This document shows positions 5,325 through 50,725 of a stretch of DNA of 64,000 bases, piece after piece. Source of the DNA: Eledone cirrhosa (lineage: Eukaryota); the NCBI GenBank assembly GCA_964016885.1, contig OZ024750.1, positions 10,974,001 to 11,038,000 of the forward strand, given 5' to 3'. Both the position numbers and the translations under genes were made by a program. The first letter of the stretch is position 1, and each line of letters opens with the position of its first letter. Under the pieces are notes generated by a model, which worked only from the letters and a program-made list of their open reading frames with translations, was not told where the DNA came from and did not search any database.

Positions 5325-5470
5325 AAAAATCAAGCAGAAATAACAAAGCAAGCGACACAGTTCAATGAAGAAATATATTAGTTTTACGCTTGATATGGTA
5401 AGAAAAGTATCTTAACGTTTCGGGTGCTAGTCTCTCATCAGAAAATAGAATGAGAAATTAAAGAAGAAAT
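5322..5470 (-). mobile_element. PLE-like pLTR remnant, family D, with minimal hammerhead motif
   Basis: Minus strand 5445-5410 reads TTTT-CTGATGA-GAGACTAGCACCC-GAAA-CG-TT-AAGA; the 3' end abuts (TG)n; related to 21697-21820 and 50793-50912. Confidence 0.6.
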
Positions 5471-7545: not shown

Positions 7546-7653
7546 TATATAATATATATATATATATTATATAATATATATATATAATATATATATATAA
7601 TATATATAAATAATATATATATAATATATATATATATAATATATATAATATAT

Positions 7654-7713
<60 letters not shown>

Positions 7714-8093
7714 TATATATAATATATATATATAATATATATATATACATATAATATATATATATAATATATACATATATAATATATACATATACATATA
7801 ATATATATATATAATATATATATAATATATATATATAATATATATATATATAATATATACATATACATATAATATATATATATATAATATATATATATAA
7901 TATATATATAATATATATATATAATATATATATACATATAATATATATATATATATATATAATATATATATATATAATATATATATATAATATATATATA
8001 TATAATATATATATATATAATATATATATATAATATATAATATATATATATATATATAATATATATATAATATTATATATATATATATATCAT

Positions 8094-8127
<34 letters not shown>

Positions 8128-8386
8128 ATATATATATAATATATATATATATATAATATATATATAATATATAATATATATATATATATATAATATATAT
8201 ATATATATAATATATATATAATATATAATATATATATAATATATATATAAATATATATATAAATATATAATATATATATAATATATAATATATATATATA
8301 TATAATATATATATATATATTATATATATTATATATATATATATATATATTATATTTATATATTATATATATTATATATATATATA
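7546..8386. repeat. very long interrupted (TA)n array
   Basis: About 840 bp of TA with periodic AA interruptions; TT interruptions from about 8320. Confidence 0.95.
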
Positions 8387-8469
8387 CGTTATTCCGGGTT
8401 GAATCGGAGGTAACCACAGTAAGTAAGGTACTCAATACATAGCAGAGTATGAAAGTTTTAATATAGATG

Positions 8470-8520
8470 AGATTCTACAGGACTAGAACTGTTTCATTCT
8501 TTAGAAATCATCAGGAATCT
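8470..8520 (-). ncRNA. type I hammerhead ribozyme motif (mirror copy)
   Basis: Exact reverse complement of 8774-8824. Confidence 0.8.
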
Positions 8521-8743
8521 GGGTATCAAAAAATAAATATGGTATTTATAGGTCTCGCCAGGTGGTAGGAGAGGGTGGGGAGTGGGATGGGTAGAGGTCA
8601 TTTGTTGATAGAAAAGGGAAATCATTAAAAGCTAAATATAAACTATAGCCTTAAAGAATTAGCTTTTAATGATTTCCCTTTTCTATCAATCAATGACCTA
8701 CACCCATCCCACTCCCCACCCTCTCCTACCACCTGAAGAGACC

Positions 8744-8751
8744 TATAAATA
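8744..8751 (+). promoter_or_regulatory. putative TATA box of the family A cassette
   Basis: TATAAATA 30 nt upstream of the A of a CA dinucleotide at 8774, which is the first base of HHR stem I; mirrored in the left arm. Confidence 0.45.
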
Positions 8752-8773
8752 CCATATTTATTTTTTGATACCC

Positions 8774-8824
8774 AGATTCCTGATGATTTCTAAAGAATGA
8801 AACAGTTCTAGTCCTGTAGAATCT
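8774..8824 (+). ncRNA. type I hammerhead ribozyme motif
   Basis: Stem I AGATTC(8774-79)/GAATCT(8819-24); core CTGATGA 8780-86; stem II T-TTC-TAAA-GAA-T; GAAA 8799-8802; stem III ACAG/CTGT with loop TTCTAGTC; GUA triplet, predicted cut after 8818. Confidence 0.8.
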
Positions 8825-8909
8825 CATCTATATTAAAACTTTTATACTCTGCTATGTATTGAGTACATTACTTACTGTGGTTACCTCCGACTCAACCCGG
8901 AATAACGCA

Positions 8910-8989
8910 TATATATATAATATATATATATATATAATGTATATATATAATATATATATATATATAATATATATATATATATATAATAT

Positions 8990-9044
<55 letters not shown>

Positions 9045-9058
9045 TATATATATAATAT

Positions 9059-9110
<52 letters not shown>
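8910..9110. repeat. interrupted (TA)n array
   Basis: TA with AA interruptions. Confidence 0.95.
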
Positions 9111-9164
9111 GGAAGAGAGTCAGGACTCCGACGGATGAGTTCCGGCCGTTTCGACAGCTAGATC
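9108..9164 (-). mobile_element. family B fragment with HHR 3' half
   Basis: Minus strand GATCTAGCTGTC-GAAA-CGG-ccggaactcat-CCG-TC-GGAGTC; homologous to 14430-14554 and 25056-25132; flanked by TA. Confidence 0.6.
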
Positions 9165-9244
9165 TTATATATATATATATTTATATGTCCGTATGTGGTT
9201 GTCGACTGAGTGAAAGGACTGTTCAATATTCTAGTAGAATTTTA

Positions 9245-9365
9245 ATATTCATTTATGTTAAGGCTAAAAAGTGAGTCTCTGAACTTTCGCCTGTTTATCA
9301 TAGGATGAACCTGCGATAAACAGGTGAAACAAGACTCACTTTTTAGCCTTAATATAAATGAATAT
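9245..9365 (+). mobile_element. family C fold-back element with 5'-truncated HHR
   Basis: Arms 9245-9299 and 9315-9365; centre reads GGATGA-ACCTG-CGATAAA-CAGGT-GAAA with a perfect 5-bp stem II. Confidence 0.6.
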
Positions 9366-9442
9366 ATATATATGTATATGTATGTATGTATGTGTGTGTG
9401 TATGTGTGTGTGTACATCTATTTATAAATTAGAGAACAGAGA

Positions 9443-9482
<40 letters not shown>

Positions 9483-9536
9483 CGAGAAACAAAGAATGTA
9501 ACGCGCGCGTATGCGATTCTGTTGATTTACAATAAT

Positions 9537-14351: not shown

Positions 14352-14549
14352 TAACAAAGAAAGTGTGGTAAGGAACTAGGTGGAGCATAACGTACCAGAG
14401 TACTTGATACTTAGGGTAGTAGAGTGGTAATAGGAAAAGAGTCAGGACCCCGACGGCTGAGCTCTGGCCGTGTCGACAGCTAGATCCGAACAGTTCGGAT
14501 CTAGCTGTCGGAACGACCGGAGCTCAGCCGTCGGGGTCCTGACTCTTTT

Positions 14550-14554
<5 letters not shown>
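14352..14554 (-). mobile_element. family B PLE-like element: 125-bp palindrome plus ~78-bp tail
   Basis: 14430-14554 is a near-perfect palindrome centred on 14492; tail 14352-14429 is shared with 24977-25055; both ends in (TA)n. Confidence 0.75.
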
Positions 14555-14669: not shown

Positions 14670-14673
<4 letters not shown>

Positions 14674-14840
14674 ATATAGAATTGGCTTCTACAGGACTAG
14701 AACTGTTTCCTTCGGAGGGTTATCCTGATGATTTCCTCCGAATGAAAGAGTTCTAGTCCTGTAGAAGCTATTTCTATATTAAATATGTATACTCTGCTAC
14801 CTTATTTACTGTGGTTACCCCCGATTGAACCCGGGAAAAA

Positions 14841-14841
<1 letters not shown>
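14670..14841 (+). mobile_element. family A element with short inverted arm and HHR core
   Basis: CTGATGA 14725-31, TTTC-CTCC-GAAT, GAAA...CTGTA; 14670-14717 is inverted relative to 14735-14783; ends CCGATTGAACCCGGG like the 8907 end. Confidence 0.75.
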
Positions 14842-14929
<88 letters not shown>

Positions 14930-14932
<3 letters not shown>

Positions 14933-15047
14933 GCTTCTACAGGATTAGAACTCTTTCATTCGGGAGAAATCGAGATGACCACACTTAAAATAGATGATTT
15001 CTTCTTATGAATGAAACAGTTCTAGTCTGGTAGAACTCATTTATATA
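14930..15047. mobile_element. family A decayed fold-back copy
   Basis: CTTCTACAGGATTAGAACTCTTTCATTC (minus) and GATGATTTC...GAATGAAACAGTTCTAGTC (plus). Confidence 0.65.
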
Positions 15048-15150: not shown

Positions 15151-15279
15151 ATGATCCTGATGATTTCTCCTGAATGAAACATTATAGTCCTGTAGAAGCC
15201 TTTTCTGTATTAAATATTTATACCCTGCTTTGTATTGAGTACCTTACTTACTGTGGTTACCTCCGATTGAACCCGGGAT

Positions 15280-15282
<3 letters not shown>
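15151..15282 (+). mobile_element. family A element with HHR core
   Basis: CTGATGA(15157-63)-TTTC-TCCT-GAAT-GAAA-CA...TGTA; tail matches 8830-8907; ends at (CA)n. Confidence 0.75.
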
Positions 15283-32720: not shown

Positions 32721-34534
32721 TGAGTCACTGCCACCATAATCACCCCCAACCTATTTATTTATCTAACTTTACATTACTTTACCTCAACTGTTGTAGTATT
32801 TGACGGCACGTATATACTACTATAGTATTTTACGAAAAAATATTTGCAATAAACAAACATTTGAAAAATAGAAGGAAACCAATTTCAGGAAAGTGAATGC
32901 CAATAAATCTATATTTTTCAGACAATGCTGATATTCTATTACTCTCTTTAATAACAACTTCAGAGGTAATGAGGAAGATTACTTTATTTGGTTATGCCGC
33001 AACAACAATAGTTTGCTTTGAATGTTGCACATTTTATAGGTGTTGCTGATGTTTCTCCCATAAAACATTTTAAGAGACAACAGAAGAAATTATAACAATT
33101 TTTAACAATAACTAAAACTTTCCATCATTAATAATAATTTCTCATTTCAATGCCATTCAACTTATATATTGTTGAACATATAGTCGAGATAAAATTTCAT
33201 TCATGCCGTGTTGTAATTGGGTAAACTAGCATTGTAGTATATTTTAATTGATATATACATAGCAGATTCAAAACATATGGTTCATATATGTGTTAAGATG
33301 CCTGACAAATTCTATTATTGTTATGCAGTTTAAGAGTAAATATACGGCGAAAAAAAAATTATTTATGACTACAGAAATGCAATAAAACAGAAAAATATAC
33401 ATAAATAAAATTATAGACATAAAAAAAAATACTTTAGAAATTTAAGATTTATCTTAACGTTATAGTTACTCAAACCCAAAGTTCACTAAACCCTTTCACC
33501 TGCCGTCCAGAATATATACTAAACAATTGTTAGCCTTGTTAAACTGGCTGCCTCGAATTTTAGTTGGAAGCTTCCCCTCTTTTCTCAACACACCTTATTT
33601 TTGTGAGTCTTAGAGTTAATTTTTCCGTACACATTTCTCTAGAAGTTCATAGGTATATGTTGCATTTACAGCTATCCCCATATCTTCACTCTATGTTGTG
33701 TTGCATAATCTCAGTAATAGTAATAAGCTGTGTTGAGACTTGGAGAAATTGAAACGGTTATTAGTTCTGTGATGCAAACGAAAAATGCTCCGAAGCTGGC
33801 GAGTAATCTAAACAGGTGAATGCATCACAGACTTATCTATAGTCTGTACATGGAAAGGAAGCGTAGCATTCAAATGAAACACTCTGCGAAGTTATAAATA
33901 TATTTAATGTGAGCTCCCAGTACTGAATTCAGATATGATGATATACTTAAGACAAAACAAAAAACGAGAACCAATGGACATTATTTGGGGTGTATTGCCA
34001 TATGGATACCTCAACTGATTATCTTCGAAGGAAACTTCTTAAATATGCATAACACCAATTTTATACAAGTGTATTGAAGGTGATGAATTTCTCCACAGAG
34101 AGGAGTTTTGAAAGAAGTCAAAACCGTGAACATTTTAATACTGAATCAAATATGTGAAAACAAAATAAAGAGAGGTTTGGGTTAGGCTCTCTAACATCCA
34201 ATCAACTTTCACAGTCCTACTGTAGACGAGAGTGTCAATTGAATCAAATGTGTCAAATAAAATTTGCTATAATTCAAATAAATTATGTTATACATTTCTC
34301 ACCTTTATATTTCTGTTATGGAACACTGAGATAATTGTTTCAGCCAAGAAAATGGTATTTCCTGAAGACGTGTGGGTTTTTATCAAATTATGCATAAGCA
34401 ATATTAAATGAAATGCAAATTAACAAAATTTTAAACCTGAAGGTGGTATATCAGGTTTACAAAATATTGATTATGTTTATAGACACAAAGGAAACATTCT
34501 TTCTACTATATATATATATTATATATATATAATA

Positions 34535-50631: not shown

Positions 50632-50653
50632 TATATATATATATATATATATA

Positions 50654-50725
50654 TGGCTTCTACAGGAGACTAGAACTGTTTTATTCGAAGGAAATCAGCA
50701 GGTAAGCAGATTAAACCCGGGATAC
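50654..50725 (-). mobile_element. family A decayed fragment
   Basis: Minus strand CTGCTGA-TTTC-CTTC-GAAT-AAAA-CAGTTCTAGTC..CTGTAGAAGCC, followed on plus by the family A terminus GATTAAACCCGGGAT. Confidence 0.65.

Follow-up and report, generated by a model that had tools for sequence, protein, structure and literature searches.

A 521-bp hairpin in the genome of Eledone cirrhosa very probably consists of two copies of the 3' end of a Penelope-like element (PLE) of the Hydra clade, both truncated on the 5' side and placed head to head within a (TA)n array; the two cDNAs that formed it were likely primed on both target strands and joined at a microhomology. The hairpin is located in a window of 64,000 nucleotides (the whole stretch of DNA that was analyzed; contig OZ024750.1, positions 10,974,001 to 11,038,000), to which coordinates without a locus name refer. 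It is most likely a dead insertion, whose promoter and ribozyme motifs are passengers without a downstream open reading frame (ORF).

The inverted repeat spans 8387-8907. Its arms of 249 nt each are identical at 240 of 249 positions (9 mismatches, 96.4%). A first-pass annotation of the window had reported a 521-bp hairpin with 249-bp arms of about 96% identity and a 23-nt loop, with TATAAATA 30 nt upstream of stem I and an identical, complete type I hammerhead with a GUA site in each arm, and all of these features were recovered (Table 1). The left copy has 96% identity to the pseudo-LTR and tail that precede the ORF in loci L163 and L166, and the right copy has 94-96% identity to autonomous copies in L162, L163, and L166. 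The loop sequence extends as upstream element sequence in other genomic copies.

Table 1. Features of the hairpin and of the (TA)n arrays that flank it
Feature	Position	Strand	Remarks
(TA)n target array, left	7546..8386	.	
Left PLE copy	8387..8635	-	5'-truncated: pseudo-LTR, hammerhead, and tail; 3' end outward into (TA)n
Second tail, left arm	8387..8453	-	Rare; most hairpins have one tail
Mirror hammerhead motif, identical	8470..8520	-	Predicted cut after 8476
Mirror TATA box	8543..8550	-	Placed by arm identity
Right PLE copy	8632..8907	+	276 nt, the longer copy, 5'-truncated, loop included; 3' end outward
Junction microhomology CTAA, 4 nt	8632..8635	.	Overlap of the two copies
Loop, 23 nt	8636..8658	+	Element sequence of the longer copy only; not a spacer
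Right arm	8659..8907	+	Inverted-repeat partner of left arm 8387-8635
TATA box TATAAATA of the element's likely promoter	8744..8751	+	Starts 30 nt before A8774
Type I hammerhead motif	8774..8824	+	Predicted cut after A8818; first base is the inferred transcription start
PLE tail, 67 nt	8841..8907	+	In autonomous copies extends into 5' leader, then ORF
(TA)n target array, right	8909..9110	.	

The junction between the two copies occurs once in the genome (<=1 mismatch), and therefore the hairpin is not mobile as a 521-bp unit. The long inverted arms and the TA context might suggest a MITE or a fold-back DNA transposon, mobile as such a unit with long terminal inverted repeats, but its junction would be fixed and repeated, which was not the case. 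In addition, arm lengths and junctions vary among the other hairpins, and many copies stand alone or continue into an ORF for a reverse transcriptase (RT), so this explanation is hardly credible at all.

An assembly or amplification fold-back artefact is extremely improbable. No public contig piece from the contigs of four runs covers the whole stretch, but such a gap proves nothing. Against an artefact, the 9 sites at which the arms differ include variants that each occur commonly among family members, the loop is real sequence of the element, and head-to-head joints at the hammerhead start are present in contigs of X1, X4, and X6 (X1 may be the assembled sample).

The arms belong to an abundant family of repeats. 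A search with the right arm gave 1,876 candidate genome matches, and the 40 that were scored were 96-98% identical to the query, the self match aside. Exact matches to the 46-nt hammerhead core number 6,745 genome-wide, against none for the reversed control. The core copies are split between strands as 3,968 forward and 2,777 reverse, whereas neighboring anchors are strand-balanced; there may be a one-strand tandem array of the core on a later contig. A sister family gave 6,142 further matches to its own anchor. Approximately 21 of the 100 listed sister-family matches (L227-L231, L234, L238, and L239) have identical flanks and a damaged core, and thus represent a hammerhead fragment carried within another repeat.

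The parent element was sought among six hammerhead pairs spaced 5-10 kb apart, two of which (L077 and L078) contain a long RT-like ORF. In L078, the last 91 nt of the arm lead uninterrupted into this ORF. The tail-to-leader junction occurs 109 times in the genome (<=1 mismatch), and among 30 such loci fetched, many of those listed show the arm upstream of the ORF and some are truncated or rearranged. The arm, whole or partial, leads into the ORF in L078, L163, L164, L165, and L166, and an inverted copy is located directly upstream of the ORF in L165 and L166 and ~1.6 kb upstream in L163. Because the same arm leads into the RT ORF in full-length copies, each arm of the window hairpin is assigned as the hammerhead-bearing pseudo-LTR plus the 67-nt tail of such an autonomous PLE. 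Beside family copies in TA tracts, L008:149-580 and L011:2-1081 contain fragments of another PLE type, GIY-YIG-like and RT-like by eye. These fragments were rejected as the autonomous partner; they showed no meaningful ORF similarity, and the L008 hammerhead differs.

The ORF is unbroken in L163 and L164 and encodes 713 amino acids from Met in L163. In both loci it has RWR, DKT, CxCx5C (CNCLNKEAC), YIG, CxxC (CDLC and CPNC), and CxH (CMH) motifs, and a CCHH motif is absent by eye. No Pfam RT match was obtained for the ORF, the Pfam GIY-YIG match was sub-threshold (E 0.13; for L077, E 0.022), and PDB sequence searches gave nothing useful. Among its Atlas neighbors, GIY-YIG is present in 29-50% of members. 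The structure model based on a 92-sequence alignment has a pLDDT of 92, and the single-sequence model a pLDDT of 32. When the ORF model was compared with the PDB, the five best matches were all telomerase RTs (TERT), with a best E-value of 7.8e-9. The protein is accordingly predicted, from the fold search and the motifs, to be a telomerase-like RT, and the motifs and Atlas neighbors suggest that its C-terminus may be GIY-YIG-like.

ORF motifs, the hammerhead, and (TA)n targets probably place the element in the Hydra clade of PLEs. Traits of this clade include RWK and DKT motifs, a CxCx5C linker, and CxxC and CxH near the C-terminus (PMC8557442). Penelope-13_HM, Hydra-1_Obim, and Hydra-1_Amil share with our element a single ORF of ~700 amino acids with RW[K/R], DKT, CxCx5C, CxxC, and CxH, as well as (TA)n targets and a hammerhead within the pseudo-LTR (PMC8557442). 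A preference for insertion into (TA)n was also found in our family, both at the window locus and in the sampled copies. In the same source, several Hydra-clade hammerheads carry CTGATGAT...TGAA and ACAG/CTGT-A, like the window motif, and Penelope-13_HM has a 5'-truncated inverted copy with a hammerhead on both strands. Earlier work on PLEs already describes inverted copies at the 5' end, tails on one end, and insertion into (TA)n (PMC8557442). In the family described here, loop III is 8 nt long, the 3' UTR is long and rich in microsatellites, and the unit exceeds 3 kb. The L078 unit, at ~3.7 kb, exceeds the length of 'generally' <3 kb given for the clade (PMC8557442) because its 3' UTR is rich in microsatellites. 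The window copy further differs from these elements in having no ORF and two tails. The Hydra family of Octopus bimaculoides is listed with a different hammerhead (PMC8557442), and since the hammerhead sequences differ, our family is separate from Hydra-1_Obim. In the part covered, an annotation of octopus repeats names Penelope families but gives no hairpin or hammerhead detail (PMC13282606), and our family may be included in its supplements.

The hairpin had been read in the first-pass annotation as a divergent pair of promoter-ribozyme cassettes. As a purpose-built pair, this reading is not supported, since the junction is unique genome-wide and the arms are pseudo-LTR and tail of an autonomous PLE, i.e., a by-product of retrotransposition. 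It could still be that the remnant was co-opted and kept by the host, either as a functional divergent promoter-ribozyme cassette or as a source of double-stranded RNA for ADAR or Dicer. In both arms, the TATA box and the hammerhead are intact and show the same sequence, the source elements show family-level signs of a working promoter, and read-through RNA is predicted to form a duplex of ~250 bp (-431 kcal/mol). However, arm-to-arm divergence (3.6%) is about the same as divergence to other copies (2-4%), many such hairpins with varied junctions exist, the active ribozyme fold is predicted to be rare as a monomer, and no host exon was found in the window (none of 116 window ORFs matched Pfam; the entropy/GC filter kept 121, and short exons would escape). 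Host use is thus very improbable. A marginal SNORD36 match (34.7 bits, E 0.084) was seen at 34074-34150, again with no host exon found.

How the hairpin arose is suggested by the ends of other family copies. We used the first 100 listed core matches on contig C1 and one partner (101 copies). Their 3' ends were at arm positions 166-188 in 57 copies and 246-254 in 43, and one copy continued into the leader. The two classes of 3' ends differ by the 67-nt tail, and TA comes next in most copies.

Tails are distributed unequally between hairpin arms. Among 67 head-to-head pairs, whose loci were picked without tail-containing queries, 64 were tailed on a single arm and none on both; the other 3, two of which have partly deleted tails, were counted as tailed on neither arm. 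The untailed arm reached further 5' in 23 hairpins, the tailed arm in 15, and the reach was equal in 26. Since the arm without a tail is so often the longer of the pair, a single cDNA that simply folded back on itself was discarded as the origin. For 34 long hairpins, agreement between the two arms was found at 258 of 271 diagnostic sites, compared with 67% (maximum 77%) in 2,000 shuffles. The arms of a hairpin would therefore usually derive from one source sequence or have been homogenized later; arm-to-arm gene conversion could also produce such concordance.

We propose the following mechanism from these genomic copies. The RT-endonuclease of the element would nick and prime cDNA synthesis on both strands of the self-complementary (TA)n target, and reverse transcription would begin at either of two sites 67 nt apart, the end or the start of the tail. 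The template would usually be uncleaved RNA. In the case of the window, the two cDNAs would then be joined at the 4-nt microhomology. Most hairpins would combine one RT start site per arm with one source sequence. For the window hairpin, two different RNAs were probably used, or it was later converted by another copy.

Only 2 of the 34 long hairpins, the window hairpin and L032 (G000:C7:90562479-90563014), have two tails. The flanks of L032 are inverted too, and thus it sits within a larger palindrome. The arms of the window hairpin carry different common alleles at arm positions 42-43, the linked site 233 agrees with this split, and further sites of the right arm fit the other sublineage. An origin from two different RNAs is likely because both arms are tailed and their subfamily alleles are discordant, a reading based on one dinucleotide (42-43) and one linked site (233).

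Alternatively, the hairpin of the same PLE could have acquired its form after insertion, when gene conversion or recombination made symmetrical what had been either a hairpin with one tail or a pair of neighboring copies. The rarity of two tails (0 of 67 unbiased hairpins and 2 of 34 long ones), the mosaic appearance of the right arm between sublineages, and the location of the other two-tailed case, L032, within a larger inverted duplication are consistent with such an event. On the other hand, mismatches between the arms affect 3 of 67 sites in the tails and 6 of 182 elsewhere, and for this reason the second tail is no recent addition. Outside the TA arrays of the window locus, the flanks are not inverted, and its junction is a simple microhomology as in other hairpins. 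Symmetrization after insertion is therefore unlikely, though by no means negligible.

The 5' ends of family copies point to the start of the element RNA. In the 101-copy sample, 55 ends were at arm positions 110-121, mostly 116-117 (stem I begins at 116); shorter copies are excluded from this sample because the anchor starts at 121. Among 30 copies fetched with an anchor past the cut site, 9 began at 110-118 and 7 across 124-158. The templated C before the start was absent in 1,370 copies, and G was present there in 80 of 100 listed. An extra G was found in 22 of the first 30 loci (a set in which two pairs have identical junctions, and some of those lacking G are longer copies with a point change); it was explained by the partner arm in 9 cases and not in 13, the latter including 4 of 6 solo copies that abut TA. 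By analogy with L1, an extra G may be a trace of cap copying.

Each position of the TATA box is conserved in 96-100% of copies (145-151 copies), and sister-family copies keep TATAAATA at -30 although the spacer differs. At the level of the family, the TATA box probably directs Pol II to begin a capped transcript on the first base of stem I, and the ATG lies 181 nt after this inferred start. RT stalling or switching at stem I is a rival cause of the 5'-end pile-up. The earlier suggestion that Pol II transcripts start at the ribozyme is thus supported for the family by the 5'-end pile-up, the extra G, and TATA at -30. In the literature covered, which omits most subscription journals, no paper on twin priming, the TATA box and start site, or an untemplated G in PLEs was found.

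The hammerhead has a 6-bp stem I (AGATTC/GAATCT), CTGATGA, a 3-bp stem II closed by U.U, GAA, a 4-bp stem III (ACAG/CTGT) with an 8-nt loop III, and a GUA site that ends at A8818. No Rfam hammerhead match was obtained at the gathering level across the window or at E<=10 within 8300-9500; Rfam gave just generic hairpin (miRNA) matches below threshold. In an alignment of 9 sequences from the two sister families, stem I has two compensatory pairs and 91% of cells are paired. Since Rfam gives no match, the hammerhead call leans on the core letters, these compensatory changes in stem I, and likeness to published Hydra-clade hammerheads. The motif is far beyond chance, though as a dispersed repeat it is not unique.

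Self-cleavage of this motif is doubtful. Genomic copies extend across the predicted cut site, the active fold as a monomer has a predicted probability of ~0.001 and is 3.4 kcal/mol above the minimum-energy fold, and PLE hammerheads have been reported as weak or protein-dependent (PMC4209133, PMC11167929). None of the 30 copies fetched with an anchor past the cut site started at the cut site. The prompt self-cleavage after ~45 nt that the first-pass annotation had envisaged is therefore not favored, and the ribozyme is probably slow on its own. Full-length copies that begin at the cut site were considered and rejected as a class; one was seen in L078 alone, and most other listed ORF copies have an upstream pseudo-LTR.

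Similar motifs have been described as dual minimal hammerheads, i.e., opposite-strand pairs 100-700 bp apart, with dispersed motifs related to truncated PLEs and low cleavage in vitro (PMC4209133). In contrast to the hammerheads in that report, stem III of our motif is 4 bp long, and the G10.1-C11.1 pair described there as highly conserved is missing. Non-LTR retrozymes (bioRxiv 10.64898/2026.07.22.740005) are likewise non-coding, PLE-derived, and equipped with a type I hammerhead, but they are head-to-tail tandem repeats, whereas the window locus is a head-to-head pair with a unique junction.

The closest biochemical parallel to the proposed mechanism is PAc, a Poseidon PLE from Anolis, which in vitro cuts and extends both target strands, starts reverse transcription at two sites that bound the tail, uses an uncleaved RNA template, and has a ribozyme that needs protein (PMC11167929). 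PAc belongs to another clade, and its ORF begins inside the hammerhead, unlike the downstream ATG found here. The tail of Penelope is given as 30-40 bp (PMC11167929), compared with 67 nt in our family.

Twin priming of LINE-1 also produces inverted structures by priming on both target strands followed by joining at microhomology, as proposed here. In L1, the two cDNAs come from non-overlapping parts of one RNA; by contrast, the two arms of the hairpins in this study mostly cover overlapping stretches of the element, each beginning close to its 3' end.

Other repeats in the window have related features. Copies of the sister hammerhead family, 77-89% identical, are located at 14670-14846, 14935-15046, 15155-15281, and 50647-50702, and one of them is a mini head-to-head hairpin. 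A short inverted repeat at 9247-9363 with TA-rich flanks and a truncated hammerhead-like core is probably a mini-hairpin that belongs to another PLE family. A unit of 54 nt within (TA)n, at 9110-9163, recurs at 14428-14552 as a head-to-head palindrome and represents a third repeat family. Further CTGAnGA...GAAA motifs that differ in sequence occur at 5441(-), 21813(-), 50911(-), 34676(+), and 42474(+), possibly from other PLE families.

These observations have a practical consequence: hairpins with TATA boxes and hammerheads in TA-rich animal genomes should be checked against PLEs first. The window locus is ordinary, and the PLE family is more informative through its very high copy number. Its signatures can be counted, namely the start at the first base of the ribozyme with an extra G, the near-strict one-tail rule, the matched arms, and the absence of a pile-up at the cut site. 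The copies likely record where the element RNA starts and how it is copied. We lean slightly toward a fuller reading, in which the mini-hairpins preserve a trace of the PLE cycle: the TATA box would give rise to a capped RNA whose first base is exactly that of the hammerhead, and this RNA would be copied uncleaved up to the cap from two fixed starts, one per target strand. The origin of tandem and inverted structures and the role of the hammerhead are named as open questions for PLEs (PMC8557442). If the copies do record this cycle, it would explain the inverted pseudo-LTR together with the one-ended tail; the ribozyme would stay off during insertion, and the two-tailed hairpin of the window would be a rare product of two RNAs.
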